From assembly GCA_902577425.1 (NCBI GenBank), contig CACGZD010000001.1, positions 638,414-702,413 of the forward strand: a stretch of 64,000 nucleotides of DNA, in the 5' to 3' direction. Shown here one piece after another: positions 15,580 through 40,891 of this stretch (positions are counted from its first letter, which is position 1; each line of letters opens with the position of its first letter). The position numbers were made by a program, and so were the translations under genes. Below the pieces are notes generated by a model. The model made no database searches, was not told the DNA's origin, and worked only from the letters and a program-made list of their open reading frames with translations. Source of the stretch: an uncultured Alphaproteobacteria bacterium. GTDB lineage: Bacteria; Pseudomonadota; Alphaproteobacteria; HIMB59; GCA-002718135.

Positions 15580-17381
15580 TGACAGAATTAAAAAATTTAA
15601 GAAATTTTTCTATAGTTGCGCATATAGATCATGGCAAGTCTACCTTGGCTGATAGATTAATTCAATTTTGTGGAGGATTATCAGATAGAGAAATGAAAGA
15701 ACAAGTATTGGATTCTATGGAACTTGAGAGAGAGCGAGGTATAACTATAAAAGCTCAAACTGTTAGACTAAAATATCAAGGAGATGATGGTAATAATTAT
15801 ATTTTAAATCTAATGGATACTCCAGGACACGTTGATTTTTCTTATGAAGTATCAAGATCTCTAGCTGCGTGTGAAGGCTCAATATTAATTGTAGATTCTA
15901 CACAAGGAGTAGAAGCCCAAACATTAGCAAATGCTTATCAAGCTATTAATAATGATCATGAAATTGTTCCAGTTTTGAATAAGATTGACTTACCATCTTC
16001 TGAACCCGATAGAATTAAAGATCAAATAGAAGAAATTCTTGGAATAGACTCTCAAGAAGCTGCTTTAGTATCTGCTAAAACAGGTGACGGGATAAAAGAT
16101 TTGTTAGAAAAAATAATAAAGAAACTACCATCACCTTCAGGAAATGAAAGCGACCCATTGAAATGTATGTTGGTAGATAGTTGGTATGATAGTTATCTAG
16201 GAGTTGTAGTTTTAGTAAGAGTCATTGATGGCAAGTTAAGTAAAAATCAAAAAATTCGTTTCATGGCTGCTGGGGTAACTCACACTATAGATAGAGTAGG
16301 AATATTTTCACCTAAAGCAGAAGAAGTAGATTCTTTAGGTCCTGGAGAAATTGGTTTTATTAACTCTGGAATCAAAAGTGTTTCAGATTGTAAAGTTGGA
16401 GATACAATTACTGAGGAGAAAAATCCTGCTAAAGATCCACTACCTGGTTTTAAACCTTCGCAGCCAGTTGTTTTTTGTGGCATGTTTCCTGTAGACTCAG
16501 ATGATTATGAACATTTAAGAGATAGTATGGTGAAATTAGCATTAAATGATTCTAGTTTTTCTTATGAGCCAGAAGTTAGTCCTGCTCTTGGTTATGGCTT
16601 TAGGTGTGGTTTTCTCGGTTTGCTTCATCTAGAGATAATTCGGGACAGATTTGAAATAGAGTTTAATTTAGAATTAGTTACTACGGCACCTTCTGTTGTT
16701 TATAAAGTTAATATGAATGATGGAAGTGTAATTGATTTGCATAACCCTACAGATATGCCTGATCCAGTAAAAATAAACAACATCGAAGAGCCATGGATCA
16801 AAGCTACAATTTTGGTTCCTGATGAATATCTTGGACCAGTATTAGAATTATGCACTTCAAAAAGAGGAATTCAAAAAAATCTTAGTTATGTTGGGACTAG
16901 AGCATTGGTTGAATATAAATTACCTCTCAATGAGGTAGTTTTTGATTTTTATGATCGTCTTAAATCCATAACAAAAGGTTATGCTAGTTTTGACTATGAA
17001 ATGACAGGTTATGAAGTAAATGATTTGGTAAAAGTTTCTATTTTGATTAATGGAGAGCCTGTAGATGCCCTGTCATTAATTGTACATCGAGATAGATCAC
17101 AATCAAGAGGCAGGACTCTTTGTTCTAGATTAAAAGATTTAATTCCAAGACAACAATTTAAAGTTGCAATTCAAGCTGCCATAGGTGGTAAAATTATTGC
17201 GCGTGAGACGGTTGCTTCATTTAGAAAAGATGTTACGCAAAAATTATATGGCGGTGATGTTACAAGAAAGAATAAATTATTAGATAAACAAAAAAAAGGA
17301 AAAAAGAGAATGAAGCAATTTGGTAAAGTAGATATTCCTCAAAATGCTTTTTTAAATGCTCTTAAAATGAATGAAAACTAG
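15579..17381 (+). CDS. lepA: Elongation factor 4 (LepA)
   Basis: [39 protein letters not shown] and KCYGGD-like LYGGDVTRK; normal C-terminus. Confidence 0.98.
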
Positions 17382-17382: not shown

Positions 17383-17427
17383 CTACGGATCTGGAGGTTA
17401 GGAGTTCGACTCTTCTCGGGCGCGCCA
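17383..17427 (+). pseudogene. 3' half of tRNA-Arg(ACG) (att-like fragment 1); 5' half absent
   Basis: CTACGGA anticodon loop, TCTGG, T-arm AGGAG-TTCGACT-CTTCT and CGGGCGC-GCCA. It starts 1 bp after the lepA stop; there is no D-arm or 5' acceptor strand upstream. Confidence 0.9.
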
Positions 17428-17473
17428 AGTAAAGTGGGAAATTTATCTACTGTTCCGTTTTGAAAATTCCTAT

Positions 17474-17495
17474 TCGGAACACTTACGGACCACTT
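17474..17495. repeat. Tandem 11-bp arm-type repeat (tRNA-distal side of Arg fragment 1)
   Basis: TCGGAACACTTACGGACCACTT is 17/22 identical to the Ser-module motif TCGGCGCACATACGGCGCACTT. An inverted half (TGTTCCG) lies 17 bp upstream. Confidence 0.72.
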
Positions 17496-17557
17496 CGTAT
17501 TCAAAAATTACTTTTTACGTATCAACTTTTCTTACTATTGGTGCTAAGACAGTTGTA

Positions 17558-18718
17558 ATGAAAAAAGAAACTGGCTACTGGTTGTTTAATTGTAATCCTG
17601 CAATATGGGATATTAAATCAAGGCTTCAAAGTAAAATTACAAAGGAAGATTGGGGAATTCCTAATAATAGAGTTAAACAATTTAAAAAAGGACAACTAGG
17701 ATTTATCAGAGTCGCGTTAGACACAAGACCTAAGAGACTTGTAAATAAAAAACTATTATCTGGTTTTTATGCTTTAGTAGAAATTGTAGACGAACCTTTT
17801 TATGGAAAAACAAAAAATCCTAAATTGTTTTTTAAGCCTACCAAATATACCCAAAAAGTTAAAAATGTTGAATTAAAAACACATTGGAGAGTTCCTATAA
17901 ATATTACAGAAAGTTTTTTAAACTCACCAATACTTATTTCAGATTTAAAAAATACTGAATTTAATTTTGATAAAGGAGTATTTCAACCAGGACAAGGAAT
18001 TTCAGTTAGACCAATAGAAAGAAAATCTTTTTTTGAACTTCTTAAAATGACTGGCAAAAAAGATAAATTATGGATTGAAGACATTAAGGAGGCGTTTAAT
18101 AGTCTTGGAAGAGAAGCGTCTTTAAAGGAAATTTATTCTGAAGTAAAAAAAATAAGAAAAAATATAAATCTCAATCAAGACTGGCAAGCAATTGTTCGAA
18201 GAGAAATAGGAGAAAATTCTTCAGATACAAAATATTGGAAAAAAAAATCTGATTTATTTTATAACGTATATGGACTTGGCGAAGGGTATTGGGGTTTAAG
18301 AAGTTTCGCAAATGATCCCAAAATAATTAAAAATTACAAAAAACAATTTGAAAAAAAAGTAAATAACAATTTAAAACTATCTGCTGCAGAACTTAAAAAA
18401 AGAGCAAACAAAAGTTTAAAAGTTAAAGTAAAAAATACTCAAACCAAATATTTTAATAGAGATGATTATGTTGAGGCTTATGTAAAAAAAATTGCAAAAG
18501 GTAAATGTGATTTATGTGAAAAAAATGCGCCTTTTAAAAAGAAAAAAACAAATGAGCCGTACCTAGAGTGTCATCATGTTAAGTGGCTTTCTAAAGGGGG
18601 AAAAGATATTATTGAAAATGCAGTAGCTCTTTGCCCCAATTGTCATAGAAAAATGCACTCATTAAGCCTTAACAAAGATATTAAAAAACTATTTGAAAAA
18701 ATAAATACTCGGCAATAA
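17558..18718 (+). CDS. EVE-domain + winged-helix + McrA-like HNH endonuclease (putative modification-dependent, type IV restriction enzyme)
   Basis: N-terminal YWLFNCNPAIWD...WGI...KGQLGF (EVE-like), central WIEDIKEAFNSLGREASLKEIY...GYWGLR (wHTH-like), and C-terminal CDLC...EPYLECHHVKWLSKGGKDIIENAVALCPNCHRKMH (McrA-type HNH). Confidence 0.8.
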   Translation: MKKETGYWLFNCNPAIWDIKSRLQSKITKEDWGIPNNRVKQFKKGQLGFIRVALDTRPKRLVNKKLLSGFYALVEIVDEPFYGKTKNPKLFFKPTKYTQKVKNVELKTHWRVPINITESFLNSPILISDLKNTEFNFDKGVFQPGQGISVRPIERKSFFELLKMTGKKDKLWIEDIKEAFNSLGREASLKEIYSEVKKIRKNINLNQDWQAIVRREIGENSSDTKYWKKKSDLFYNVYGLGEGYWGLRSFANDPKIIKNYKKQFEKKVNNNLKLSAAELKKRANKSLKVKVKNTQTKYFNRDDYVEAYVKKIAKGKCDLCEKNAPFKKKKTNEPYLECHHVKWLSKGGKDIIENAVALCPNCHRKMHSLSLNKDIKKLFEKINTRQ

Positions 18719-18729
18719 TTTTTTATATC

Positions 18730-18753
18730 CCAGTGCAAATTCGTAACACTTCA
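18730..18753. repeat. Orphan arm-type repeat between the HNH and YdjM-like genes
   Basis: GTGCAAATTCGTAACACTTCA (18733-53) is 18/21 identical to 19985-20005; no tRNA fragment follows it. Confidence 0.65.
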
Positions 18754-18754
18754 C

Positions 18755-19957
18755 TCAGAAATTCAAAGCAAAAATTAGATAGGGTGTGTCATAAGCTGGG
18801 CAATTAGTTACAATTTCAATTGATTTTTTTGCAAGTTTGTACTTACTAACTTCCCCATTACACATGCTTTTATTATCTTCTTTGTGATCAATTATTTTGA
18901 TTTTATTCTCTATAAAAGAAAAAACTGAATAAGTATTATGTCTAATATGAGCTGAACCTTGAGGTTGAGAGAAAGTAGAAATTAAATAATTATTTTCATT
19001 AAGTTTTAATAAAATTTCAGTATCCAATTGCTCTATCTCATTTTGCCAATCAATCTCATATATTGATTTATTAACAATATTATAAAGTTTAGACCTATCA
19101 AAGGATTTTAAGTCAATTTCTTGGTTATTGCTAAAGCAACAATCATAATTGTGAACCATATATGTTATAATTTTAGGATCAAAATTATTAATAGTTATGT
19201 TTTGGTTTGGACCAATCGTAGAATAATCTTTAAATTTTTGATAATCGTTAAATAATGTTACTCCATAATAAACGAAAAACAATACTATTAATAAAATTGA
19301 TAAATAAAAAATAAATTTAAAAAATTTGTAAACACCAGAAAAAAAACTATTTACTTTACGCTTTGCTATTTGAAGATTTTGAGTTGATTTTTCAGTGACA
19401 CTACTCAACTTTGGGAAATAGCTAAATATTTTTTTTTCACCAAAATAATCTACTGTTAATACTGCTATTGGTATCATTCGTATATCTTCTCCTTTAAGAA
19501 AGTATAAAAGAATACATATTCCCGCAGTAAGGTAGAAGTGATATGGATAAAACGAAAAACTATTTTCTTTAATTATTTTTAAGCAAAAATAACCACACGC
19601 TATTACATTTGCAAATATCCAAATAGGACTAAGCGGACCTATCCAACCAATAAATGGAACGCTGATTAAAGCATAACCTTTCCATGATTTGGGAAACAGA
19701 TCTGCAGATAGGTGGACCATAAATGCGAAATATATTGCAGCAATAATTAAAGGATATTGTTTTGAAGAGTATTTTTTTGAATAATAATCAATTAAAAAAG
19801 GTATAAAAATGCTGTGTGTTACAATTGAGCGATGAAGTAATAATTTTCCTGTAGCTAAATCCCAATCAGGTATACTTACAGTTACTAGTGCAATAAAAAA
19901 GAAAAATATACTTGAGCCAGTTTTTTTACCAAAGTTCTTTTCTAAATACTCAATCAT
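18755..19957 (-). CDS. YdjM-like membrane metal-dependent hydrolase with a C-terminal soluble domain
   Basis: IPDWD, HRSIVTHS and HLSADL motifs in a multi-TM N-terminal half, then a basic linker, one TM helix and a hydrophilic C-terminus. Confidence 0.65.
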   Translation of the reverse strand: MIEYLEKNFGKKTGSSIFFFFIALVTVSIPDWDLATGKLLLHRSIVTHSIFIPFLIDYYSKKYSSKQYPLIIAAIYFAFMVHLSADLFPKSWKGYALISVPFIGWIGPLSPIWIFANVIACGYFCLKIIKENSFSFYPYHFYLTAGICILLYFLKGEDIRMIPIAVLTVDYFGEKKIFSYFPKLSSVTEKSTQNLQIAKRKVNSFFSGVYKFFKFIFYLSILLIVLFFVYYGVTLFNDYQKFKDYSTIGPNQNITINNFDPKIITYMVHNYDCCFSNNQEIDLKSFDRSKLYNIVNKSIYEIDWQNEIEQLDTEILLKLNENNYLISTFSQPQGSAHIRHNTYSVFSFIENKIKIIDHKEDNKSMCNGEVSKYKLAKKSIEIVTNCPAYDTPYLIFALNF

Positions 19958-19981
19958 TTTATAAACTTATAACTAAACTTT

Positions 19982-20005
19982 GTGGTGCAAATTTGGAACA
20001 CTACA
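19982..20005. repeat. Tandem 11-bp arm-type repeat (upstream of Arg fragment 2)
   Basis: TGGTGCAAATT-TGGAACACTAC shows an 11-bp period. The second CAC (19999) is 86 bp before the anticodon loop at 20085. Confidence 0.68.
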
Positions 20006-20084
20006 GAATCATTTTTTTTCACTTAACGAATGATTTTTCCCGTAATTCCGTATATGTAATACAATCTGGTGCACGGGACACGGA

Positions 20085-20129
20085 CTACGGATCTGGAGGT
20101 TAGGAATTCGACTCTTCTCGGGCGCGCCA
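20085..20129 (+). pseudogene. 3' half of tRNA-Arg(ACG) (att-like fragment 2), decaying
   Basis: Same as 17383-17427 except that G53 is changed to A (AGGAA-TTCG), breaking the invariant G53-C61 pair; no 5' half. Confidence 0.9.
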
Positions 20130-20175
20130 TATAAACTGTCAAAAACTTAATTTTAAAAAATTATTAATTAAAAAA

Positions 20176-20197
20176 AAGTGTGCCGTTTGTGCACTTT
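20176..20197. repeat. Arm-type repeat after Arg fragment 2 (largely inverted)
   Basis: The reverse complement of 20176-94 is GTGCACAAACGGCACACTT, 16/19 identical to GCGCACATACGGCGCACTT. The following ~35 bp resemble those after 17495. Confidence 0.68.
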
Positions 20198-20243
20198 CGT
20201 ATTTAGAAATACTATTTTGGATTCAACATTCCTCTTAGAAGAA

Positions 20244-20990
20244 TTATTTTATTTTTTTATTAAAAACCACAGGCATTTTGCCTTTCCACTGAATCCAAAG
20301 GTTAGGTTGTTCAATGCACTCACACATAAAATGAGCGACGTTTGCTCGCGTAGTAGTAAGTCCATTAAAAATAGTTTGAGGAGGTGTCGTTACTACTTCA
20401 TAGTTCGAAATTTCAGCATTAATGAGTCCGTCTGGTCGGACCACTACCCATTCAATAAATTCATTTTCTGAACCAATGTTATCTCTCAAAAAAGCAGCGG
20501 AGGCTTCATTATCATAATGTGGTGGTATGAGGTTGCGTAACAGAGATAAAATAACTTTTTCGCTCGTGGTTACTCTCTCACCAGGATTGCGATTACCTAC
20601 GGTGTTCATTAATAAAAATTTTGTTTTATCTAGAGAATGAGTAGCCTTAATAGCTACACATAGACGTTTGACTGCTTCCAGAACAAGCGTTCTGGGTTTG
20701 CCAAATATTCCTTTAAAACTCATTGTGTGACCTAAGCAGGAAGCCACAGCAGCACAACCTTTTACGGCTTCCAACATTTGTTCGTCACTCAGATCAAGCA
20801 AACTTGCTTTTATGATTTTAAGCTTTGGATTTTCAAGAAGTTCTTGTGGAAATTTATCGAGTGACCGAACAATAATTCGAAGGTTATAGCCGCGGACAAG
20901 AAGCTGTTTTACAAGAGGGAAACCAGTATTTCCTGTGGCTCCAACCACTAAAACTGTTTTAAAATTTGAATTGGTTTTTTCGGTTGTCAT
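20244..20990 (-). CDS. NAD(P)H-binding atypical SDR (BVR-B/flavin reductase-like)
   Basis: VLVVGATGNTG, VASCLG, WVVVRPDGL and TTRANVAHFM motifs. Confidence 0.85.
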   Translation of the reverse strand: MTTEKTNSNFKTVLVVGATGNTGFPLVKQLLVRGYNLRIIVRSLDKFPQELLENPKLKIIKASLLDLSDEQMLEAVKGCAAVASCLGHTMSFKGIFGKPRTLVLEAVKRLCVAIKATHSLDKTKFLLMNTVGNRNPGERVTTSEKVILSLLRNLIPPHYDNEASAAFLRDNIGSENEFIEWVVVRPDGLINAEISNYEVVTTPPQTIFNGLTTTRANVAHFMCECIEQPNLWIQWKGKMPVVFNKKIK

Positions 20991-21006
20991 TTACCGGGCA
21001 TATAGA

Positions 21007-21609
21007 CTAACTCAAATTTATATTAAAACTTATTACAATTCTATCTTCATTTGATCTATTTACATCAACAGAGTGATGTAAGTAGCTAGGAAACAGTACT
21101 AACAAGCCTTCTTCAGGTTTTATTGAAACAATATTAGTATTTAAGTTATTAGGATTGTCTACTTTAGGGTGAAAATAAACTGGTTCACTTCTTGGATCAT
21201 GAAAAACAATATTGCCACAATTTTCAGGGGCTTTAACATAGTAGGCTGCACTTATATAATTGTTACTATGTATATGTCTTGCATTAGTGGCATCATTTCT
21301 ATTTATGATAGACCACATACTGGTAATTTTAACTTTTTGATTTTTTAAATCCCATCCCATATCTACAAGTGTTTCGTTTATGTAAGGGCCAATAGAGTTA
21401 ATATAATCTTTTATATTGTCAGCATTCATATCAAAGTCTTGAGAGTGCCATCCTTTTGAATTAGATTTTTGAACTCCTTTAGGATTTTGAGACTCTAAAC
21501 TTTTTATATATTCTAATATCTTTTTATTAACTTCTTGATGGTTTTTCACTCGTGAAACCCAAACAGGAGTTGAAAAAAAAAGTTTTAATTCTGACACTCT
21601 ATCTGTCAT
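21007..21609 (-). CDS. Putative 2OG-Fe(II) oxygenase, TIGR02466-like
   Basis: GWHS, HIHSNNYISAAYYV, IVFHDPR, GLLVLFPSYLHHSV and RIVISFN motifs. Confidence 0.85.
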   Translation of the reverse strand: MTDRVSELKLFFSTPVWVSRVKNHQEVNKKILEYIKSLESQNPKGVQKSNSKGWHSQDFDMNADNIKDYINSIGPYINETLVDMGWDLKNQKVKITSMWSIINRNDATNARHIHSNNYISAAYYVKAPENCGNIVFHDPRSEPVYFHPKVDNPNNLNTNIVSIKPEEGLLVLFPSYLHHSVDVNRSNEDRIVISFNINLS

Positions 21610-21667
21610 ACGTTTTAACTACCTTAACTTTTTGAATTTTGCTAGAAAATTCTACAGACTTATTGCA

Positions 21668-23638
21668 TTACTTAGTACTATCAATACAAACAATTGCATA
21701 AGGTAATAATTCCAGTTTAAGAGATCCATTAGCAGTTACGTGTTTTTTAAAGTTTTGAGCACGAAAAGTTTCAGGTGATTTCATTGCTTCCTCAATATTA
21801 CTTTCATTGAGATGTCGAATATTAACTGAACTACCTAAATTTTTTACTGTTAATTGTTGTACTTCTGAAACTAGATTAGCTAAAATAATTCTTATCTGAC
21901 CTTCTTTGTTTATAGCTAATCCATTTATTTTTAAAGGATTGCTTGATGAGGTTGAAATAATCTCTCCATCTGCAAATTCTCCTACATCAGCAAAAACATG
22001 ATAAAGAGGAAAAACAGATTCTTTAAATGAATAAAATTTTTCTGGAATAGGTGAACCATACTGAGTTTCCATTACACCTCGCCATCCTGTTGTTTCATAA
22101 TATGTCAAACTATGAGCCTCACTTTCACATAAATATTTTAAGCTGCCAACTGTCCAGCCTGCACCAAATAGAGACATCTGTCTCACATCTACTTGAGATG
22201 GAAGCTGGTTAGATTTCAATTCTGTTTCAGGAGAAGTAGCAAAGGGATTAAAACGCATTTTTAATGTAATAGGTGAAACCGCAATAAATTTATTATTAGA
22301 AAATTGACGAGCACTTTTTACTGTTTCCGGTTGAGCTGAAAGCGTTTCTATTAGTGAAAGATTATCAAAAGCATGTACCTGCGGATTGATAGAATAAGAT
22401 ACTAAATCCATATCTTCAAAAGAGGCAGTGGAACGATTCAGATCAGTAAATAAAACATTTGTACCAGAACCTATTTTGATATTATGATCATATTTTTGTA
22501 AATATTTTTTAGCTAATAATATCCATTTTTTAGAAGTTGTTATTTCTTCTTTATGGAAAATGAGCCAAGTTAAAATAGGAGGTTTAATCTTTTTTAATAA
22601 TTCAAGAAAAGCCATCAGTTCAGACTCAGCATCATTTGAAAGAAACAACGCTACTTCTAAATTAATTCCTAATTTGTGAGCATCCCTAGATGATTGTTCG
22701 AATTTTGCTTCATAATTAGGATCATATAAATTTAAATTAATTCTTTGATGAGATAGATTTAAAACTTTTAGTCGCTCCAACTCTTTTTCATTGAGTGGAT
22801 AATCATGACTAGCTTCATCCAATCCAATTTTTGGTAGTTTTCGTATTGCTTTTTCTTTTATTAAAAAAGTAAGCTCATCATTAGCTTTAAAAGATTTTAA
22901 TTCATGATCTTGATTTTTTAAAGTTAAAGAAAAGTTTTGAGAAATTTTTGTACCTGCTTTAACTTCTACTGGAGAAGGTTTGCTAAGTGGAGTACCGTAG
23001 GTTTTAAAAGAGGCATCTGTCCAGTTTCGTTGATCTTCCATTTCAAAATTTTCACCTTCAAAACGAACTTCTGCTAGTAAATTTTGTTTTACTTGATAGA
23101 CAAGTGCTCGCATATTAGAAAATGGTTCAACAGGTGAAGGCTTGTCATTAATGATAAGTTGCGGTGCTATAAATTTTGGAAATGTAGTTTGTTCAATTGT
23201 TCCATCCACATGTTCAATTTTACACTCTGTACTGGCATATTCCATTGGATGCAAAATACAAAAACCAATGCGGTTTCGCCAAAATGTGGAGCGCGCTTCA
23301 CCATCCATACTAAAGGTGATAGCACCATTAGCTTTACCAATAATTTTTCCTTGCCAGCAGAAATCAATGTCACTTTGAATATTATTGACAGTATATGTGA
23401 TAATAAAAGAATCATCTTTTATATCCATCTTCACATTTGATAAAACAGGTTTTACAGTGTCCCAATTACGATCACGCACAGCAACATAGATACGACGGAT
23501 TATTTCCTTATCACCATATTTAATATAGCGAAGATCTCCTGCTTCATAAAATAAATTTAATGGTCCAGCTTTAAGGTCTATCTGTTTGGGTAATGATTCA
23601 TCTTTTCCATAATATTGAACGTTTTTAGATAATTTCAT
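21668..23638 (-). CDS. apnL: D-apionate lactonase-like protein
   Basis: AGPL, GDLRYIKYG, VRDRNW, NRIGFCILHP and FEMEDQRNWTDASFKTY match my recollection of the ApnL family; adjacent to the ApsD-like gene. Confidence 0.7.
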   Translation of the reverse strand: MKLSKNVQYYGKDESLPKQIDLKAGPLNLFYEAGDLRYIKYGDKEIIRRIYVAVRDRNWDTVKPVLSNVKMDIKDDSFIITYTVNNIQSDIDFCWQGKIIGKANGAITFSMDGEARSTFWRNRIGFCILHPMEYASTECKIEHVDGTIEQTTFPKFIAPQLIINDKPSPVEPFSNMRALVYQVKQNLLAEVRFEGENFEMEDQRNWTDASFKTYGTPLSKPSPVEVKAGTKISQNFSLTLKNQDHELKSFKANDELTFLIKEKAIRKLPKIGLDEASHDYPLNEKELERLKVLNLSHQRINLNLYDPNYEAKFEQSSRDAHKLGINLEVALFLSNDAESELMAFLELLKKIKPPILTWLIFHKEEITTSKKWILLAKKYLQKYDHNIKIGSGTNVLFTDLNRSTASFEDMDLVSYSINPQVHAFDNLSLIETLSAQPETVKSARQFSNNKFIAVSPITLKMRFNPFATSPETELKSNQLPSQVDVRQMSLFGAGWTVGSLKYLCESEAHSLTYYETTGWRGVMETQYGSPIPEKFYSFKESVFPLYHVFADVGEFADGEIISTSSSNPLKINGLAINKEGQIRIILANLVSEVQQLTVKNLGSSVNIRHLNESNIEEAMKSPETFRAQNFKKHVTANGSLKLELLPYAIVCIDSTK

Positions 23639-23658
23639 TTTTTTGTAACTTTAAGCAT

Positions 23659-24696
23659 CTAATTGCCCATTGTTACAAGTGAACCACCTTTTGCAGCTGA
23701 TTGATAAGCTGCCTCTACTAGTTTCAATGTTTTTAAATTATCATCAACTGAGGTTTCAGGTTTAAGATTTTGTGGAACTGTGTCTATCCAATGACGACAT
23801 GTATTTTTAACGCTATCTTGAACTACATGCCAAGGTTTTTCACACCAGTCATCAACACTTGGTTCAGCATTTATTGTTTCAACTTTTTCACCAGATCTTT
23901 TTATCATTTGGTACCCTGCTCCTAGCGTTACTGCACCATTTGTTCCTTCAACAGAGACAAGAGTTTCAGGGAAAAGATCTGGGACTTGCTTAGATCCATA
24001 AGTACATTCAACAATTGCAGTCCGCTCTTTTGAAAATCCTAACATCATTGTAGCCATATCTTCACCAGCAATATCTGAACGAGTTTTTTGAGTTCGGCAA
24101 CATATAGAAGTAGCTTCTCCAAATAAAAAACGTGCGGTATCTAGAACATGAACTCCCAAGTCCATTAGCACTAGTTGATCTACTTCCTTAAGATAAGGTT
24201 GATTTGTATAAATATCGAAAGAAGTACGAAAACTTATCTTACAAAAAAGATGTTGACCAATGTTATCATTTGCAATGAAATTCTTTAGATCTCTTATAGG
24301 TTGTTGAAACCTGAAATTTTCATGAACCATCATGGGTGTTTTAGTTGTTTCAGCAAGATCAACAATTTTAGTTGCTTCTTTTAATGAGGGAGCCATAGGT
24401 TTTTGAATAATGGCAGAAATATTTAGAGAGGCTGCTAGTTTTGCAAGATGATAATGGGATGGCGCAGTTGTGACAATATCAACAACATCAGGTCGAACTT
24501 TTTTTAACATCAATTCAGCATCAGTGAAATATGGAGTGCCTTTCGAAATATTACTTGCATTAATAGCCTTCTCTTCATCTAGATCACAAACGCCAACTAG
24601 ATCTACGTCTTTAAAGTTGCTCCATGAAAGAATATGATTTGTTGCAAAAAATCCACAACCTATAACAGCTACTTTACTTTTATTTTTATTTATCAT
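23659..24696 (-). CDS. apsD: D-apiose dehydrogenase-like Gfo/Idh/MocA oxidoreductase
   Basis: IGCGFFA, QKP, HENFRFQ, SFR..FD.Y..QPYL, DLGVHVLD, FPETL, PWH and DNLKT..LVEAAY, as in ApsD. Confidence 0.72.
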   Translation of the reverse strand: MINKNKSKVAVIGCGFFATNHILSWSNFKDVDLVGVCDLDEEKAINASNISKGTPYFTDAELMLKKVRPDVVDIVTTAPSHYHLAKLAASLNISAIIQKPMAPSLKEATKIVDLAETTKTPMMVHENFRFQQPIRDLKNFIANDNIGQHLFCKISFRTSFDIYTNQPYLKEVDQLVLMDLGVHVLDTARFLFGEATSICCRTQKTRSDIAGEDMATMMLGFSKERTAIVECTYGSKQVPDLFPETLVSVEGTNGAVTLGAGYQMIKRSGEKVETINAEPSVDDWCEKPWHVVQDSVKNTCRHWIDTVPQNLKPETSVDDNLKTLKLVEAAYQSAAKGGSLVTMGN

Positions 24697-24744
24697 TTTT
24701 ATTTTATATATAACCTAATCATATTTTTATATTTTCTTATCCAA

Positions 24745-25563
24745 TTATGATTTAGCATCTCCATCTGCAGGATCCAAACTAGTAGCTGGTATCCGATCAC
24801 ATCCAACTTCTTCTAAGGACTGATGCAGAGATCGCATTAATAGTCCACTATCTGGTCCTAAAGCTAACATTCGAAAACCTTGATCACGTCGTTCAGTTAA
24901 ATTTTTAACACTAGTAGATATAACACCACAATGTTTTCCAGCAGCGTTAATTATGTCTTTTAATTCTAATATTTGTTCGGCTACACCAGGACCTTCCCAT
25001 TGTCCTCGATATCCTGCACTTGCTGAGAAATCAGCTGGACCAAAGAAAAATAGATCTATTCCATCTACTTTACACATGTTGGCTACATTAGGAATGGCAT
25101 TGATACTTTCAATCAAAGGTATAACTAGTACATTTTCATTTGCTTCATTAGTATGTTCACTTAAACACTGACCCCATACTGTTGCTCGTTCTCCTCCTAT
25201 TCCTCGTCGTCCTTCAGGTGGATAATGGCAATCACGAACGGCCTCTTCTACTTCTTCTACCTTTTCCATCCAAGGAACTATTATTCCATCAGCTCCAATA
25301 TCAAGAGCACGTTTTGACAAGGAAGTACTTCGTTCAGCAATACGGACAAGAACAACAGTATCACTTCGTAAAGCTGCCCTAATATGGGAATTTATGTCTC
25401 TCCAATCCAAATGACCATGTTCTGCATCAATTACAACCCAATCTAAACCGAGAGAAACGGCCATTTCAGTAATTGACGCTGATTCAAGAGTAACCCATAA
25501 TCCGTATATAGGCTCATTTTTTTTAAGCTTTTGCCTTAGTTTTTGAAGAGCTTTAACTTTCAT
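24745..25563 (-). CDS. HpcH/HpaI class II aldolase
   Basis: DWVVIDAEHG, ALDIGADGIIVP, YPPEGRRG, PLIES and FFGPADFSAS motifs. Confidence 0.9.
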   Translation of the reverse strand: MKVKALQKLRQKLKKNEPIYGLWVTLESASITEMAVSLGLDWVVIDAEHGHLDWRDINSHIRAALRSDTVVLVRIAERSTSLSKRALDIGADGIIVPWMEKVEEVEEAVRDCHYPPEGRRGIGGERATVWGQCLSEHTNEANENVLVIPLIESINAIPNVANMCKVDGIDLFFFGPADFSASAGYRGQWEGPGVAEQILELKDIINAAGKHCGVISTSVKNLTERRDQGFRMLALGPDSGLLMRSLHQSLEEVGCDRIPATSLDPADGDAKS

Positions 25564-25721
25564 TTTTTTTCAATTTATACATTATAGTCATTCTAATTAA
25601 AAACTATTAGCACTTGATAATAATTTTTAATACGATTATCATTCTTTTGATATGACAAATATGAGTATAATTTTATCATATTTATTTATCAAAACAAATT
25701 TTTAATACGTAGGAGGGAATA

Positions 25722-26756
25722 ATGGTATTAAGAAAAATAATAGCTGCTGGGTTTTTGAGTGTAGCAACACTTTTTAGTTTGTCTATATCAAGCATAGCTT
25801 CAGCCGGTCAGATAGTAGTTGGCTACGCTGCACCTTCTCTTGATGGTGCACAGAAGCAAATATTTGATGGCTTTAGGATTCCAGCAGAAGCAAAAGGTTG
25901 GAAAGTAGTTTCTGTAACATCTGGAGGAGATGCTCAAAAACAAATTAATGACGTTAATGACTTTATAACTCAAGGAGTTGATGCAATTGTAGCGGTTCCT
26001 GATGATAGTGCTGGAATTTGTGTTGCAGTAGCAGCAGCGGAAGAAGCTGGAATACCTTTTTATACAATTGATAGATCTGCAGTTGGTTGCCAAATGGAAA
26101 TGACTGTCCTAGCTGATAACAATCTAGGCGGAAATCAATCTGGTAATGCTGTTGTTGCGCATTTAACAAAAAAATATGGAGAACCTAAAGGAACAGTTTT
26201 GCATATTACTGGTAACTTAGCACAAAACGTTGCACAGTTAAGAAAAGCAGGATTTGATGAAATTATAAATCAACATTCTAACATTGAACACATTACCAAA
26301 GATGGTGAATGGCAAGTTGAAAAAGGAGTTCAAATAGTTCGTGACGTTTTATCAGTTCGCGATGTTGATGCAATTTATTTACATTCTGACTGTGCTTACT
26401 CTGAGAGTACTGTTCAAACTCTAAAAGAGATGGATCAATATGCACCTAGAGGCGAAGATGGTCATATCTTTATTGCAGCAATCGATGGTTGTAGCTCTGC
26501 TTTAAATTTAATCCGAGAAGGATCAACTGACCAAGCTTCAGGTCAACCAATTCCAGACTTTGGAAGTATGGTTGTTGTATATATTGAAAAGAAATTGAAT
26601 GGTGAACCAATTGAGGAAGGTCAAGTTGTTCAAGAAGGAGCATTATGGTCTCCAGCTCAACTTGTAATGACTGATGTTGGCTTTCAGCTTTTCTTAAGTA
26701 CAACTGATATTTCTATAGACAATGTGGACAATCCTGGACTTTGGGGTAACCAATAG
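25722..26756 (+). CDS. Sugar ABC transporter substrate-binding protein (RbsB-like)
   Basis: Signal peptide; QINDVNDFITQGVDAI, AGIPFYTIDR and ADNNLGG motifs; AGGAGG RBS. Confidence 0.9.
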   Translation: MVLRKIIAAGFLSVATLFSLSISSIASAGQIVVGYAAPSLDGAQKQIFDGFRIPAEAKGWKVVSVTSGGDAQKQINDVNDFITQGVDAIVAVPDDSAGICVAVAAAEEAGIPFYTIDRSAVGCQMEMTVLADNNLGGNQSGNAVVAHLTKKYGEPKGTVLHITGNLAQNVAQLRKAGFDEIINQHSNIEHITKDGEWQVEKGVQIVRDVLSVRDVDAIYLHSDCAYSESTVQTLKEMDQYAPRGEDGHIFIAAIDGCSSALNLIREGSTDQASGQPIPDFGSMVVVYIEKKLNGEPIEEGQVVQEGALWSPAQLVMTDVGFQLFLSTTDISIDNVDNPGLWGNQ

Positions 26757-26799
26757 TTGGATTGAACACTACGTTTGTTGATGTTATAAAAAAATAAAT

Positions 26800-26830
26800 T
26801 TTGGAGGGGTTAATTTTTATCCCCTCCAAA
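26800..26830 (+). terminator. Stem-loop between the SBP and ATPase genes (terminator or mRNA-stabilising hairpin)
   Basis: TTTGGAGGGG-N11-CCCCTCCAAA, a perfect 10-bp stem. Confidence 0.7.
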
Positions 26831-26890
26831 CTCGTAATTCAAAGATTATAAATATAATATAAGTATGATAAAAAGATTTTGGTTGGAATT

Positions 26891-27631
26891 ATGAAAATTC
26901 TTGAATTAAAAAATATTTCGAAAAGCTTTGGCGCAATCCATGCTTTAGAAAATGTAGATTTAGATATTACTCCAGGAGAAGCGCTTGGTCTAATGGGTGA
27001 TAATGGAGCTGGCAAATCAACACTTGTGAAAATTGTTGCTGGAAATTTTTCTCCTACAAATGGAGAAATTTTTGTTGCAGGAAAAAAAACGTCAATTTCT
27101 AATCCACTTGAAGCTAGAAATCATGGTATCGAAATCGTGTATCAAGATCTTAAATTGTGTAATAATTTAACAGCCTCTGCGAATGTTTTTTTAGGTCGGG
27201 AAATAAATTCAGGTTTTGGTGTTTTTTCACGGCTAAAACACACTGCTATGAATGATCGAGCTGCAGAATTATTTGGAGAATTACAATCCGAAACACGTCC
27301 AAATGATGTAGTAGAACGAATGTCTGGCGGCCAACGACAAGCAGTCGCGCTTGCACGAACACGTTTGTCTGATCCAAAGATTGTTTTGTTAGATGAGCCT
27401 ACTGCAGCAATTTCAATTCGCCAAGTAGCAGGAATTCTTGCAAGAATTAAACAACTTAAAGAAACTGGTCATGCTGTAATTTTGGTAAGTCACCGAATGA
27501 TGGATGTTTTTGAAGTATGTGATCGTGTCGCCGTTCTACGAAGAGGGAATAAAATTGCTGATAAACCAATCGCTAACACAAACCCAGAAGAGGTTACTGG
27601 ATTAATAACCGGAGCTTTAGAAAAAGCATGA
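26891..27631 (+). CDS. Sugar ABC transporter ATP-binding protein (single NBD)
   Basis: GDNGAGKST, MSGGQRQ and LLDEPT motifs; ATG at 26891 preferred over TTG 26879. Confidence 0.92.
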   Translation: MKILELKNISKSFGAIHALENVDLDITPGEALGLMGDNGAGKSTLVKIVAGNFSPTNGEIFVAGKKTSISNPLEARNHGIEIVYQDLKLCNNLTASANVFLGREINSGFGVFSRLKHTAMNDRAAELFGELQSETRPNDVVERMSGGQRQAVALARTRLSDPKIVLLDEPTAAISIRQVAGILARIKQLKETGHAVILVSHRMMDVFEVCDRVAVLRRGNKIADKPIANTNPEEVTGLITGALEKA

Positions 27632-27652
27632 ATTATTCATTAGAGGAAAGTT

Positions 27653-28687
27653 ATGTTTTCATATAATCGTTTATTATTTCTGATTGATCATTTAATTTGG
27701 GGTATTTTAGTACTTGTATTTGTGTTTTTCATATTTCAATCTGAATATTTTCTTACTGAAAGAAATATTTCTAATATTTTAACAGCAGCAGCAGTATTAG
27801 GTGTCTTGGTAGCGGGTCAAACTTTTGTTTTAATAAGTGGCAACTTCGATTTATCGACAGAGTCCACATTAGGATTGGCAGCTTTAGTTGGTATCTGGTT
27901 GATTGTACCTGCAGGTCCGACAACGTTTGGTGGTGGAATTTATATGAATCCCTACCTATCAATTATTTGTAGCTTATCAATGGGAGCTTTAATTGGTTAT
28001 ATTATTGGTTGCTTAATAACATATGGTAACATGCATAATTTCATCGTTACTCTAGCAGCTCTTCTTGTTATTAGAGGTTTAATGATGGCTTTTACAGAGG
28101 GTGCACCAGTAAGTGGTTTTAATAATCCAAGTGCAGATGTTTTCTACTGGCTTGGTCATGAAAAAGCTTTTAAAGTCCCAGGTCTTGGTAAGATTTCCGT
28201 TGCTGTTCTTGCAACAGGATTAGTTTATATTGTTTGTCATTTAATTTTAAAACATCACAAATTTGGTCGAGAACTATATGCAATTGGTGGTAACCGTGAT
28301 GCTGCAGAAGCATTAGGTATAAATGTCAATAGAAGAATTAGGCAAGTGTATATGCTTAGTGGACTACTAGCTGCCCTAGGTGGTTGGATGTTAGCAGGAA
28401 GAGTAGTATCCATACAAAGCAATCTTGGTGAAACTTTTATATTTACTGTTTTTGCTGGGGCTGTCATTGGTGGTGTAAGTCTTCAAGGCGGTAGAGGAAC
28501 AATGTTAGGTGCTTTAGGTGGAGTTTTATTACTTTCTACAATTGATCGGGGATTAAATTTAATGCAAGTTTCTGTTTTTTGGATAAAAGTCATTCAAGGA
28601 TCAGTAATTCTAGTAGCTATGCTTATTGACGCACAACGTGTCCGTCTTAAAGAACTTAGTATCATTGCAACCAGTGAAAAAAAATAA
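27653..28687 (+). CDS. Sugar ABC transporter permease (RbsC-like)
   Basis: GNFDLS, FIVTL, FGRELYAIGGNRDAAEALGI and AVIGGVSLQGGRG motifs. Confidence 0.92.
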   Translation: MFSYNRLLFLIDHLIWGILVLVFVFFIFQSEYFLTERNISNILTAAAVLGVLVAGQTFVLISGNFDLSTESTLGLAALVGIWLIVPAGPTTFGGGIYMNPYLSIICSLSMGALIGYIIGCLITYGNMHNFIVTLAALLVIRGLMMAFTEGAPVSGFNNPSADVFYWLGHEKAFKVPGLGKISVAVLATGLVYIVCHLILKHHKFGRELYAIGGNRDAAEALGINVNRRIRQVYMLSGLLAALGGWMLAGRVVSIQSNLGETFIFTVFAGAVIGGVSLQGGRGTMLGALGGVLLLSTIDRGLNLMQVSVFWIKVIQGSVILVAMLIDAQRVRLKELSIIATSEKK

Positions 28688-28705
28688 TTAATTGAATTTT
28701 AATAA

Positions 28706-28795
28706 GGAGAGATGTGAGAGCGGTTTAATCAGCACGCTTGGAAAGCGTGTATAGTGGAAACACTATCGAGGGTTCGAATCCCTCTCTCTCCGCCA
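28706..28795 (+). tRNA. tRNA-Ser(GGA), intact, 90 nt
   Basis: Acceptor GGAGAGA/TCTCTCC, D stem TGA/TCA, anticodon arm CACGC-TTGGAAA-GCGTG, long variable arm TAGTG-GAAA-CACTA, T arm GAGGG-TTCGAAT-CCCTC, and encoded GCCA. Confidence 0.96.
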
Positions 28796-28839
28796 TAAAT
28801 TAGGATTTTCCTTTAACGATTTTTCAACAAAAAAGTGTT

Positions 28840-28861
28840 TCGACGCACATACGGCGCACTT
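28840..28861. repeat. Tandem 11-bp arm-type repeat, GGCG type
   Basis: TCGACGCACATACGGCGCACTT is 21/22 identical to 30760-81; the second CAC is 62 bp after the tRNA CCA. Confidence 0.85.
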
Positions 28862-28899
28862 ACGAGCCTATTTTTCATCTTAATCCCGTATCGGTATTG

Positions 28900-28918
28900 T
28901 GGTAGGATAATCGTGATG
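28900..28918 (+). promoter_or_regulatory. Putative extended -10 promoter with leaderless start
   Basis: TG-G-TAGGAT-N7-ATG, 18/19 identical to 43015-43033; no Shine-Dalgarno sequence. Confidence 0.5.
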
Positions 28919-29344
28919 AAAAAATTATTTTTTTTAATAGCTTTATTATTTTTGTTTTCTTCATACGCTAACGCTAAAGTGGTAAAACTTTTATGTGAGC
29001 CAAGAGAATACTACATTTATGATCACAATCAATCATCTGGAACTTATACTAAGCGTTTTGAACCTAATATTTTGGATTTAATTATTTCCATAAGTGAAAA
29101 AAAATTAACCATGTATTATGATGATGCAGAAGATAGTTTTAGTAGAACAAAAATTAATGCCGACCCAACATCATTTCTTATGAAATTTCAGAATGAAAAA
29201 TATGGAGTAGTGGTTGGCTTTCTTTTTCATAGAAAATCAGGAAGATTAAATAAGTTTAAAAGTGGAGGTCAATATGGAGGTGATAATAATATTTTTTCTG
29301 AGACATATTATAATTGTGAAAAATATTTAGAGCCCGTTTTTTAA
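28916..29344 (+). CDS. Secreted hypothetical protein
   Basis: ATG 28916 begins a clear signal peptide, MKKLFFLIALLFLFSSYANA. The track's upstream GTG start would run through the arm repeat. Confidence 0.7.
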   Translation: MKKLFFLIALLFLFSSYANAKVVKLLCEPREYYIYDHNQSSGTYTKRFEPNILDLIISISEKKLTMYYDDAEDSFSRTKINADPTSFLMKFQNEKYGVVVGFLFHRKSGRLNKFKSGGQYGGDNNIFSETYYNCEKYLEPVF

Positions 29345-29351
29345 AAATTAT

Positions 29352-29981
29352 ATGACCAATAAAGTTAAATTAAAATATGACTATATAATGAAATTAGAAT
29401 ACGTTGGTGAAGTCAAGGACGGCTTGCCCCATGGATATGGTACTTTCAATATATATGGAGAATTATCATTTAAAGAATTAAGTAAGACACAAAATTATAA
29501 AGAAACAAAGAAGGGTGAATACGAATATTTATCTCATCATAAATCTACCACACATTATCTTCAGGCACTTATAGAGGTGTCTTTAACAAAAAGTAAGCCA
29601 AAGGATTTTGATAAAGATTGTTTGGAAATTTCTATTAAAGGGGGCTTTAAAGAAGGTCTTTGGGAGGGACGTTTTTTTAGGATTGATTATGATTTTTTAA
29701 ATGGAAAAGAAAGTGACAATGAAGAAACTGAAGATTTTGAAGTATATTCTGAAGCATCGATTTTTGAAAATAATATTATGGTTGAAGGAAGAATAGATTT
29801 TGATGATGGTTATTATTTTGGTGAAGTCATATTGAATGAATCCTATAATAAAGATTTTGAAAAAGCCACTGGAGATCTTTATTTACCTCATGGAGAAGGT
29901 GATTACATTTATCATGATCCGAATAAAGGCAAATGGTTTAGAGGAATTTGGGAAAATGGAAAATTAAAAAAAACAAATTAA
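29352..29981 (+). CDS. Acidic protein with MORN-like repeats
   Basis: YVGEVKDGLPHGYGTF, YFGEV...PHGEGDY and WFRGIWENGK motifs. Confidence 0.65.
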   Translation: MTNKVKLKYDYIMKLEYVGEVKDGLPHGYGTFNIYGELSFKELSKTQNYKETKKGEYEYLSHHKSTTHYLQALIEVSLTKSKPKDFDKDCLEISIKGGFKEGLWEGRFFRIDYDFLNGKESDNEETEDFEVYSEASIFENNIMVEGRIDFDDGYYFGEVILNESYNKDFEKATGDLYLPHGEGDYIYHDPNKGKWFRGIWENGKLKKTN

Positions 29982-30542
29982 ATGACTAAAAAAGAAAAAA
30001 TAAAAACAAAGGATTGGACTTACAATGGTGAGGTTAAAAATGGGGAACCTCATGGAGATGGAATAATGAAATTTAAAAATGGAGAAAAGTTAGAGGGTTG
30101 TTGGAAAAATGGTAACCCTATAAAAGCATATAAATATATTCTTTATTCAAATGAAAAAAAAGATATGAGATATGAATACGAAGGTACGTTAGGTTGGGGA
30201 AAAGGCGGCGTATTAAATGGAAAAGGAATTTTTAAAATTATAGATAAAGTTTCAAAACCCAAAGGTTATACTTATCTAAAAGGAAACTTTGTAGGAGCCT
30301 TATTGGAAGGCAAGGGAATAAGAATTTTGTATTATGATAAAAACTATAGCCGAGCAATAAATCTTTACAAAGGTGAATTCAAGAACGGTTTTCAACATGG
30401 AAAAGGTATAGAGTGGTTTTACCCAAATAAATATTTCTCTGAAGGAATATTTAAAAATAATAAATTTAAAGGTTCAAAACAAAAACCACTTACAAAAAAG
30501 GTTTTTAAATTAATATTAGATGCAAATAATATTAACAAATAA
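29982..30542 (+). CDS. Basic MORN-repeat protein
   Basis: YNGEVKNGEPHGDGIM, LEGCWKNG, YEGT..NGKGIF and YKGEFKNGFQHGKGI motifs; TAAATG-coupled to the upstream gene. Confidence 0.75.
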   Translation: MTKKEKIKTKDWTYNGEVKNGEPHGDGIMKFKNGEKLEGCWKNGNPIKAYKYILYSNEKKDMRYEYEGTLGWGKGGVLNGKGIFKIIDKVSKPKGYTYLKGNFVGALLEGKGIRILYYDKNYSRAINLYKGEFKNGFQHGKGIEWFYPNKYFSEGIFKNNKFKGSKQKPLTKKVFKLILDANNINK

Positions 30543-30563
30543 CTAAAACAAATGAAATAATTC

Positions 30564-30643
30564 TTGTCTCACATATGTCTCACTCGCGCACCCGGTATTT
30601 ACATTTTTACGTTTAATTTTTCCTAGAAACCTTACACTTTGTA
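30564..30643. repeat. Right-end arm of Ser module 1: GTCT-type tandem repeat plus a conserved ~60-bp spacer
   Basis: TTGTCTCACATATGTCTCACTC followed by CACCCGGTATTTACATTTTTACGTTTAATTTTTCCTAGAAACC..., near-identical at 42761-42840 and 43798-43877. Confidence 0.85.
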
Positions 30644-30715
30644 TTTAATCAGCACGCTTGGAAAGCGTGTATAGTAGCAATACTATCGAGGGTTCGAATC
30701 CCTCTCTCTCCGCCA
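30644..30715 (+). pseudogene. 72-bp 3' copy of tRNA-Ser(GGA), from the D-loop to CCA
   Basis: Starts at TTTAATCAGC with no 5' acceptor strand. The variable arm is TAGTA-GCAA-TACTA, a compensatory variant. Confidence 0.92.
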
Positions 30716-30759
30716 TAAATTAAGATTTCTCTTTAAAGATTTTTTAACAAAAAAGTGTT

Positions 30760-30781
30760 TCGGCGCACATACGGCGCACTT
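30760..30781. repeat. Tandem 11-bp arm-type repeat, GGCG type
   Basis: TCGGCGCACATACGGCGCACTT, identical to 42761-82; the second CAC is 62 bp after CCA. Confidence 0.88.
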
Positions 30782-30825
30782 ACACATTCTTTTTCATCTT
30801 TGAAAAGTATGTTATTTATATTTTC

Positions 30826-30849
30826 TTAATTGGTTTTTTCGGGTGTCAT
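30826..30849 (-). pseudogene. 7-codon stub (MTPEKTN*) matching the start of the 20244-20990 gene
   Basis: 30828-30852 is 24/25 identical to 20969-20993, which encodes MTTEKTN. Confidence 0.5.
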
Positions 30850-30862
30850 TTATGGTTATCTT

Positions 30863-32185: not shown

Positions 32186-32188
32186 AAG

Positions 32189-33283: not shown

Positions 33284-33332
33284 AATTATTTAAATTTTAG
33301 TTACTCACAATTAGGCAAATTTTAAATTGATT

Positions 33333-33370
33333 TATTCAATATTTTGAATATTATTCATTAAAAATGAATA
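33333..33370. promoter_or_regulatory. Candidate operator array in a divergent promoter
   Basis: TATTCA/TGAATA half-sites at 33333, 33345, 33352 and 33365, including the palindrome TGAATA-T-TATTCA; a similar array lies at 37526-37563. Confidence 0.4.
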
Positions 33371-33389
33371 AAATATAATTTTTCCTAAA

Positions 33390-34358: not shown

Positions 34359-34370
34359 TTTATTAAAAAT

Positions 34371-35342: not shown

Positions 35343-35355
35343 GGATAGATAAACA

Positions 35356-36486: not shown

Positions 36487-36499
36487 ATTGTTAATTTTT

Positions 36500-37501: not shown

Positions 37502-37525
37502 TTATGCCTTTATCCACCGAAATAT

Positions 37526-37563
37526 TATTCATTACATTGCATATTTATTCAAAACAATGCAAT
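37526..37563. promoter_or_regulatory. Candidate operator array between lacI and the SBP gene
   Basis: TATTCA (37526), TGCATA (37538), TATTCA (37546) and TGCAAT (37558); spacing parallels 33333-33370. Confidence 0.4.
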
Positions 37564-38883: not shown

Positions 38884-38905
38884 TCAATATAAATAAATCA
38901 GTAAA

Positions 38906-40886: not shown

Positions 40887-40891
40887 AAGTA

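Follow-up and report, generated by a model that had tools for sequence, protein, structure and literature searches.

A gene between two arm repeats in an alphaproteobacterial tRNA-Arg cassette array: probable collapse of a junction between two cassettes

Introduction

How does a gene come to lie between two direct copies of an arm repeat, only one of which is connected to a tRNA fragment? This question is raised by a locus in a stretch of 64,000 nucleotides (nt) from an uncultured alphaproteobacterium (assembly GCA_902577425.1, contig CACGZD010000001.1, positions 638,414 to 702,413), which is hereafter called the window. In a cassette array at fragments of a tRNA-Arg gene, a minus-strand gene for a predicted membrane protein (cargo 2) follows a gene for an HNH endonuclease (cargo 1) and is flanked by 21-bp direct repeats, GTGCAAATTCGTAACACTTCA at 18733-18753 on the left and GTGCAAATTTGGAACACTACA at 19985-20005 on the right, which are identical at 18 of the 21 positions. 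An earlier note, made from the sequence of the window alone, had reported these repeats and had proposed that genes may be added or swapped by recombination at the arm itself, i.e., at a second level of exchange besides the tRNA core. Its description was accurate: the repeats are present, 14 nt separate the end of the open reading frame (ORF) of the HNH endonuclease, at 18718, from the left copy, the stop codon of cargo 2 is located at 18755-18757, 1 nt past this copy, and spacer and tRNA half are missing there.

The comparison of this locus with its relatives suggests another answer. The left copy is probably the scar of a collapsed junction between the HNH cassette and the cargo 2 cassette, from which the tRNA core was lost so that the two cassettes became fused.

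The arm repeats and the ordinary junction

A degenerate pattern for both repeats matched only these two sites in the 64 kb when up to 3 mismatches were allowed, and it was not matched in any of 100 shuffles. In all canonical copies, the right repeat reaches 3 nt further to the left (GTG, 19982-19984). ARAGORN, Rfam, and repeat comparison revealed only two 3' fragments of tRNA-Arg, i.e., at 17383-17427 (core 0) and 20085-20129 (core 1), and none close to the left copy; a full tRNA-Arg gene was not detected in the window by ARAGORN or Rfam. Core 1 repeats core 0, and both cargo genes are located between these direct repeats of the 3' part of the tRNA. When metagenomes were scanned for the T-arm and acceptor part of the Arg fragment, 129 copies were found at 120 loci; 75 of these copies are full tRNA-Arg genes, which have the same block as their 3' part. 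In the fragment copies, the tRNA identity starts at the anticodon loop.

An ordinary junction in these arrays separates neighboring cassettes and resembles an attP site. It consists, in this order, of an L arm, a spacer of ~80 nt, the 45-nt core, which is formed by the 3' part of tRNA-Arg and is the place of crossover, a 45-nt linker with an inverted half-site, and an R arm. The L arm found upstream of fragment-type cores has the consensus G(G)TGCAAATyTGnAACACT and leads into the conserved spacer of ~80 nt; in the Arg-type L arms, the two half-sites are weakly similar to one another. The R arm consists of two 8-nt half-sites, 11 nt apart, and starts 44-48 nt past the end of the core in 19 of 19 Arg cases with a detected core, with the inverted third half-site ~18 nt upstream. 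The R arm of the HNH cassette is likewise a direct repeat with a period of 11 and starts 47 nt past the core end. Three apparent R arms without a core were rejected as such, as they sit beside tRNA-Gly, tRNA-Gln, or a mutated Arg core.

The right copy of the repeat in the window is part of such a junction. This L arm (19982-20005) and the spacer downstream of it are kept in L001, L118, and L213-L218, and variants are found in L102, L109, L111, L139, L142, L153, and L206. The spacer module (20006-20084) recurs in at least 15 related junctions.

The alleles of the cargo 2 locus

The canonical state of cargo 2 is seen in six contigs (L213-L218), where an ortholog with 86% identity occupies an ordinary cassette. 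On the side of its start codon, this ortholog has the same L arm as the window and the same 27 nt directly upstream of the gene, along with a nearly identical spacer. Beyond the stop codon, on the left, each of the six contigs carries the Arg core, the linker, and an R arm, TGTATCACTTATGTATCGC, and the contigs that are long enough (L213, L214, L215, and L217) also show the full spacer and an L arm, GTGCAAATTTGTAACACT, on the left. TTCGCTT separates this R arm from the stop codon, which is located within a conserved R-arm flank, TCAGAAAT. In the window, by comparison, 14 nt, GTGCAAATTCGTAACAC, and TTCAC stand, in this order, between the HNH stop codon and that of cargo 2. Yet another allele was found in L001 and L219, which are independent assemblies: there, the stop codon of a gene for a trypsin-like protease is followed by 19 nt, GTTGCAAATCTGTTACAC, TTCAT, and the stop codon of cargo 2. 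The unit is 98% (L001) and 92% (L219) identical to that in the window. Between L001 and the window, the arm differs at 4 of 21 positions and at the next base, and the rest of the unit differs by 2.4%. The homology to the window breaks at 18754/18755, both for L001/L219 and for L213. No useful homolog or context was found for the protease gene upstream in L001. The locus is also covered by a single-cell genome (L220), which is 94-95% identical to the window and supports the right side of the locus.

The left copy itself has a composite appearance. Nucleotides 18733-18750 are identical to the canonical L arm of L109. In a multiple alignment, the left copies of the window and of L001 resemble L arms in their left part, whereas their right part aligns with the flank of the L213 R arm, TTCGCTT TCAGAAATTT; the alignment to the latter spans a gap of 13 nt, where the R-arm half-site would be. 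The left-copy flank, TTCAC TCAGAAATTC, includes the stop codon of cargo 2. The half-site TGCAAAT is present in the left copies and in none of the R arms detected. The left copies also lack an inverted third half-site on their upstream side, their two half-sites are only weakly alike, and their spacing from the end of the preceding cargo gene is typical; these features mark the left part as L-type. Short-word BLAST of the flank of this orphan arm against all junction modules gave nothing significant, and the flank is accounted for by the L213 ortholog only.

Because the ortholog with 86% identity (L213-L218) is a canonical cassette with a complete left junction, the arm-only state is most simply explained as a loss. 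Before this loss, two similar direct repeats would have stood ~190 nt apart, namely the L arm belonging to the HNH cassette and the R arm belonging to the cargo 2 cassette. A crossover or a replication slip between these arms would remove the spacer, the core, the linker, and the R-arm half-sites, and would leave a hybrid arm whose left part has L-type half-sites and whose right part is an R-type flank with the stop codon of cargo 2. The HNH gene and the membrane-protein gene would then form a single cassette of 2.7 kb between the cores at 17383 and 20085, and they would be mobile only jointly. Slippage or short-homology recombination between the arm repeats is favored as the route of the crossover. 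In L213, the half-site common to both arms reads TTTGTAACACT in one and TTTGTATCACT in the other.

Since the same joint is found with a different upstream cassette in other genomes (L001 and L219), arm-to-arm recombination at this joint is shown to have occurred at least twice. Either the junction collapsed twice at the same short homology, or it collapsed once and the upstream module was subsequently swapped by a crossover in the arm.

Junction modules and the integrases of sister elements

In many loci, the start of a protein of 332-340 amino acids (aa) that matches the Phage_integrase family (PF00589) is located 23-26 nt after the R arm, and the related metagenome loci that carry this gene adjoin full tRNA-Arg genes. 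In the window, such an integrase was not found among the ORFs between 17.5 and 45 kb. Thus, sister elements with the same R-arm architecture encode the integrase that the cassettes of the window lack. Sequence comparison shows that the segment 17383-20129 is part of an array of integrase-less cassettes, whose structure is that expected from repeated site-specific integration at tRNA-Arg(ACG).

As the R arm is located 23-26 nt upstream of the start codon of the integrase gene in related elements, the arms are taken, by analogy, as putative binding sites of the N-terminal domain of the integrase. The half-sites vary between elements, and both half-sites of one R arm change in concert. Only seven distinct pairs of integrase and arm are available, which is too few for an analysis of covariation between the N terminus of the integrase and the half-sites. 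In L207, the R arm CGGAACACTTACGGATCAC (at 221), which differs at 1 base from the arm of the window at 17475-17493, is located directly upstream of a gene for a 340-aa integrase. This similarity makes the L207 enzyme a candidate cognate integrase for the cassettes of the window, and as such it could be used in experiments.

The same architecture is found at tRNA-Ser in the window (28706-44017) and at tRNA-Gly, tRNA-Gln, and tRNA-Met in related loci. Counterparts of the junction units were not found in GenBank phages or in IMG/VR, and no phage attP was found there. The possibility that an L arm together with its flank constitutes a pseudo-core that mimics a core-proximal attP was considered and rejected: for the Arg type, a score as high as the observed one came up in 23 of 2000 shuffles, and there was no support for the Ser type.

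In L164 (1766-2370) and in the window (17428-17557), the same type of R arm and a conserved leader of ~55 nt precede unrelated cargo, i.e., the HNH gene in the window and a different, possibly defense-related, gene in L164. The shared leader sits where the region upstream of the integrase gene lies in integrase-bearing elements.

Where exchange occurs and how junctions erode

Internal breakpoints of homology were collected from an all-against-all comparison of the 120 loci. They are concentrated at the edges of the tRNA core: 20 of the 109 internal breakpoints were located within 6 nt of the start or the end of a core. L213 and L214, which both carry the cargo 2 ortholog, part exactly at the end of the right-hand core. 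Such breakpoints at the core edges are the expected trace of site-specific recombination at the tRNA core. Furthermore, all other L arms of the cargo 2 type, i.e., 20 occurrences in 12 loci, lead into a spacer.

Several junctions in the related loci are incomplete. L139 and L102 contain an L arm with ~55 nt of the spacer and without a core, and the corresponding intact junction is present in L206; from another junction in L139, only the last 35 nt of the spacer are left. L220 lacks the segment corresponding to 20102-21004 of the window (at 1685-1692 of L220), which comprises the 3' two-thirds of core 1, the R arm, and a gene for an NAD(P)-binding protein (20244-20990). One end of this deletion is inside the core and the other is 2 nt from the stop codon of a gene for a 2-oxoglutarate (2OG)-Fe(II) oxygenase. 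In L219, the right junction (1700-1933 in window orientation) is cut after GAATGATTTTT in the spacer and joined to another type of arm, GCGACACTCTTACGACAC. Because junction erosion is common in these arrays, the loss of a junction is plausible.

Some other features of these loci were noticed. Approximately 70 nt past the arm GCGACACTCTTACGACAC of L219, the sequence at the contig end resembles the 5' part of a tRNA-Leu(CAA) gene; it was not called by ARAGORN. This arrangement suggests that mosaics between junctions of different tRNAs arise. A stretch of 7.4 kb in L139 (1-7385) contains five Arg cores, three types of spacer, and two eroded junctions, together with a remnant of an integrase leader without the integrase gene and a tRNA-Met fragment upstream of an L arm. 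In L091 (1-1300), an HNH homolog with 62% identity and a frameshift near its start is located between different direct repeats. These repeats are arm-like (GTTAACAC...TAACC, then TTTGGGGGAATGRTGGT), and no tRNA fragment is visible there.

Explanations for an arm without a core

The mechanism proposed by the earlier note would make cargo 2 and one arm a mobile sub-unit that is inserted or swapped between arm repeats as a regular second level of exchange. The gene does lie between direct arm copies, a single joint position connects this unit to two different arms and two different upstream genes, and other cargo stop codons are also located near arms. However, the ortholog constitutes a canonical cassette with a full left junction, and the flank of the left copy is of the R-arm type and orthologous to that of the canonical junction, which would not result from insertion at an L arm. 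Moreover, none of the 20 other L arms departs from the order of arm and spacer, breakpoints cluster at core edges, and tyrosine recombinases cut the core and not the arm sites, as is textbook knowledge for lambda-type integrases. Insertion of a sub-unit is therefore considered rather unlikely. The part of the proposal that stands is that the arm is a recombination joint, at which the unit in L001/L219 is connected, at the same nucleotide, to another variant of the L arm and to a protease gene instead of the HNH gene; the notion that genes are regularly added at the arms does not. A still more far-reaching version holds that arm-to-arm recombination is recurrent and aided by the integrase, since the intasome joins L and R arms, and that it fuses, splits, and re-pairs cassettes into multi-gene ones in SAR11 islands, thus representing a true second level of exchange. 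This version is improbable.

Alternatively, an unguided deletion in the course of streamlining may by chance have ended at an arm and at a stop codon, and the upstream gene may have been replaced later in another way. Other junctions are indeed eroded at arbitrary points, as in the spacers of L139/L102 and L219 and by the deletion in L220. However, because the joint carries two variants of the L arm and two upstream genes, random deletion is insufficient: it would need a second event within the same 22 nt or a repetition of the deletion, and random endpoints would yield neither. Hence, an unguided deletion is unlikely as well. Chance similarity or an artifact of assembly is hardly credible as the source of the repeat. 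The sequence is AT-rich and the joint between HNH gene and arm was found in one assembly only, but the shuffled sequences contained no match, more than 15 junctions have this motif as their L arm, L001 and L219, which are independent assemblies, show an equivalent joint, and on its right side the locus is confirmed by the single-cell genome. A target-site duplication generated by a transposon was rejected: the alleles do not share the same left copy, a length of 21 bp is too great, and a transposase is absent.

The collapse of a junction thus remains the probable explanation, and several points weigh against it. The intact junction is known from the ortholog with 86% identity only, and none was found in the contigs with a gene of at least 90% identity, so that its presence in the immediate ancestor has to be presumed from sequence comparison. 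L and R arms share just ~8-11 nt of good identity in L213, the sole case where both are visible, which is short for homologous recombination. Two collapses are indistinguishable from one collapse followed by a swap at the arm. The interaction between integrase and arms is a putative one, proposed by analogy, and the joint between the HNH gene and the arm was seen in the contig of the window only. Altogether, recombination at the arm level reads as real but rare, and as the collapse of a junction rather than a second tier of cassette exchange.

The locus and its surroundings

The features of the locus are listed in Table 1. The window is an AT-rich segment (~30% GC) of an alphaproteobacterial chromosome with pheT and lepA. 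The stop codon of lepA is located at 17379-17381, and core 0 begins 1 nt past it. The collection of genomes was scanned with the C terminus of LepA; lepA is highly conserved, and the only informative loci were L010, L030, and L039. The nearest lepA in this collection belongs to a SAR11-type single-cell genome and is 86% identical across the C-terminal query of 199 aa. A tRNA-Ser(GGA) gene comes directly after lepA in two other genomes of Alphaproteobacteria (L039, 10597-10694, and L030). Because of this order, the 11.3 kb at 17383-28705 of the window are considered to sit between ancestral neighbors. They consist of Arg-type cassettes and an 8.5-kb block of sugar-transport and oxidoreductase genes. 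A gene for a small bacterial signal recognition particle (SRP) RNA is located at 61512-61606 (Rfam RF00169, 53 bits).

Table 1. Features of the cassettes at tRNA-Arg fragments in the window
Feature	Position	Strand	Basis or remark
tRNA-Arg(ACG) 3' fragment, core 0	17383..17427	+	Identity block from anticodon loop to CCA; 5' half absent
R-arm region of the HNH cassette	17452..17511	+	Inverted half-site GTTCCG (17452-57); direct half-sites CGGAACAC (17475-82) and CGGACCAC (17486-93); flank TTCGTATTCAAAAATTAC
Cargo 1, 386-aa HNH endonuclease resembling McrA / type IV methyl-directed restriction enzymes	17558..18718	+	Pfam, PADLOC, names of homologs
Left arm copy, read as hybrid arm	18733..18765	+	Half-sites GTGCAAAT / TCGTAACAC (18733-18749), then flank TTCAC TCAGAAATTC
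Cargo 2, 400-aa predicted membrane protein, family unassigned	18755..19957	-	ORF list
Canonical L arm of the cargo 2 cassette, GTGGTGCAAATTTGGAACACTACA	19982..20005	+	Conserved in related loci
Conserved spacer between L arm and core	20006..20084	+	Short inverted repeat AATCATT ... AATGATT
tRNA-Arg 3' fragment, core 1	20085..20129	+	Right boundary of the cassette with HNH gene and cargo 2, read as fused
R arm GTGTGCCGTTTGTGCAC and flank of the next cassette	20178..20212	+	Homologous to R modules of L133, L139, L158, and L190, 86-90% identical

The HNH protein matches Pfam PF01844 (E=3e-9) and the PADLOC model mREase_IV (E=1e-21), and its homologs carry the name 5-methylcytosine-specific restriction enzyme A. 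A close homolog was not found in the collections searched; homologs with 57-62% identity occur in unrelated contexts. To the right of core 1, the homology of the R module of the next cassette to those of related loci stops at approximately 20212-20232, at the start of the cargo. Exact-sequence look-ups of both window proteins gave no matches.

Cargo 2 had been labeled YdjM-like in the earlier note, a label that was not supported by Pfam, NCBIfam, or PADLOC. The protein did not match any family in these three databases, even at a relaxed E-value, and the profile of the YdjM family (Pfam PF04307) was not matched up to E=10 by the N-terminal domain or by the full protein, nor was there a match in NCBIfam. 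The protein bears only an HRSxxTHS-type motif, and few homologs were found for its 400 aa. In L003 (112-1783) and L004 (218-2026), a homolog of 243 aa is 74% identical to the N-terminal membrane domain. Its gene begins 8 nt before the stop codon of a gene for a 315-aa tyrosine integrase and overlaps it; an arm-like direct repeat, GTGTCACACTCCTGTCAC, lies ahead of the integrase gene and next to tRNA-Met, and a second integrase gene is located on the other side of tRNA-Met. The family of the 400-aa protein may represent an accessory gene of such integrase elements.

A second array, at 28636-44017 of the window, starts at a full tRNA-Ser(GGA) gene (28706-28795). It contains three further junction units, at 30556, 42753, and 43790, and the cassettes measure ~1.7, 12, and 0.8 kb. 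In the earlier note, it was pointed out that cargo stop codons are located close to arm motifs at 43792, 42750, and 30542; these ORF ends were confirmed, and the corresponding arms with a period of 11 start at 43799, 42761, and 30564. Here, too, the two half-sites of an arm change in concert. The arms are of a GCGCAC and a TCTCAC type, which are not sorted by left or right position. The first unit of the array has an R arm only and the last unit an L arm only, as expected for attL and attR.

Significance and relation to known systems

SAR11 genomes are thought to be devoid of classical mobile elements, yet their islands turn over quickly. The present locus and its relatives show the units of this turnover, i.e., tiny cassettes that lack an integrase and are bounded by complete att modules derived from a tRNA, beside sister elements that bear an integrase. 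The gene between the arm repeats would represent one route from a single-gene to a multi-gene cassette, i.e., by loss of the att core in between. For annotation, it follows that an arm without a core marks a fused cassette and not a new type of insertion.

In attP sites of the lambda type, the core is located between arm-type sites that are bound by the N-terminal domain of the integrase. Similarly, the core of the junctions described here is found between short repeated sites at helical-turn spacing, with the integrase gene beside one arm; the geometry observed is a fixed one, with an R arm that starts 44-48 nt past the core, has a period of 11, and ends 23-26 nt before the integrase start. 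Unlike in lambda attP, the half-site sequences differ greatly between sister elements.

Cis-mobilizable elements (CIMEs) of the family of ICESt1 and ICESt3, two integrative and conjugative elements (ICEs) of Streptococcus, are flanked by att sites, lack an integrase and excisionase of their own, and accrete in tandem at one att site, beside a site that related integrase-bearing elements use. The cassettes of the window are likewise bounded by att modules and devoid of recombination genes, and they would presumably be moved in trans. However, CIMEs are decayed ICEs of many kb, whereas the units in the window contain a single gene and the genome is devoid of conjugation genes.

In integrons, cassettes can be fused by the loss of the attC site between them. 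As in integrons, single-gene cassettes without promoters are tightly arrayed in the window and parted by recombination sites, and the loss of such a site fuses two cassettes. In contrast to attC hairpins, however, the sites in the window are derived from a tRNA and carry arms in direct repeat, and neither attC sites nor an IntI-type integrase, attI, or a Pc platform was found in the window; the integrase is encoded on sister elements. A comparison of SAR11 islands with integron arrays was made in a recent preprint (bioRxiv 10.64898/2026.04.03.716430). This source, entitled 'Pelagibacter, resolved', also deals with a hypervariable region in SAR11 that is anchored at a tRNA, and partial tRNA repeats in SAR11 genomic islands feature in another paper (Microbiome 2025, PMC11796062). 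In the sections of these two sources that were consulted, junction modules, arms, integrase-bearing sister elements, and collapsed junctions are not described.

The tycheposons of Prochlorococcus are elements that target tRNA genes and occur in tandem, parted by partial copies of the tRNA only and accompanied by degenerate remnants (Hackl et al., bioRxiv 10.1101/2020.12.28.424599). The locus described here shares with them the integration at a tRNA, the tandem arrangement, the degenerate remnants, the additional partial tRNAs, and the cargo with functions in defense and metabolism, as well as a streamlined marine host genome without classical mobile elements (bioRxiv 10.1101/2020.12.28.424599). 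In contrast, the host is SAR11-like rather than Prochlorococcus, and the cassettes in the window comprise one to few genes without a recombinase or a replication module; replication or packaging hallmark genes and recombinase genes of the tycheposon type were not found in the window. Also, each junction in the window is a complete attP-like module with arms.

The array belongs to a broadly known kind of mobile element. Its cargo lies between direct repeats of the 3' part of a tRNA and exchange points are found at the edges of the tRNA identity block. A full tRNA is present in the tRNA-Ser array, at 28706, and not in the Arg array, where core 0 abuts the lepA stop codon. What is distinct here is the very small size of the units, the construction of each junction as a complete attP-like module with variable arms, and the documentation of a collapse by a series of alleles.

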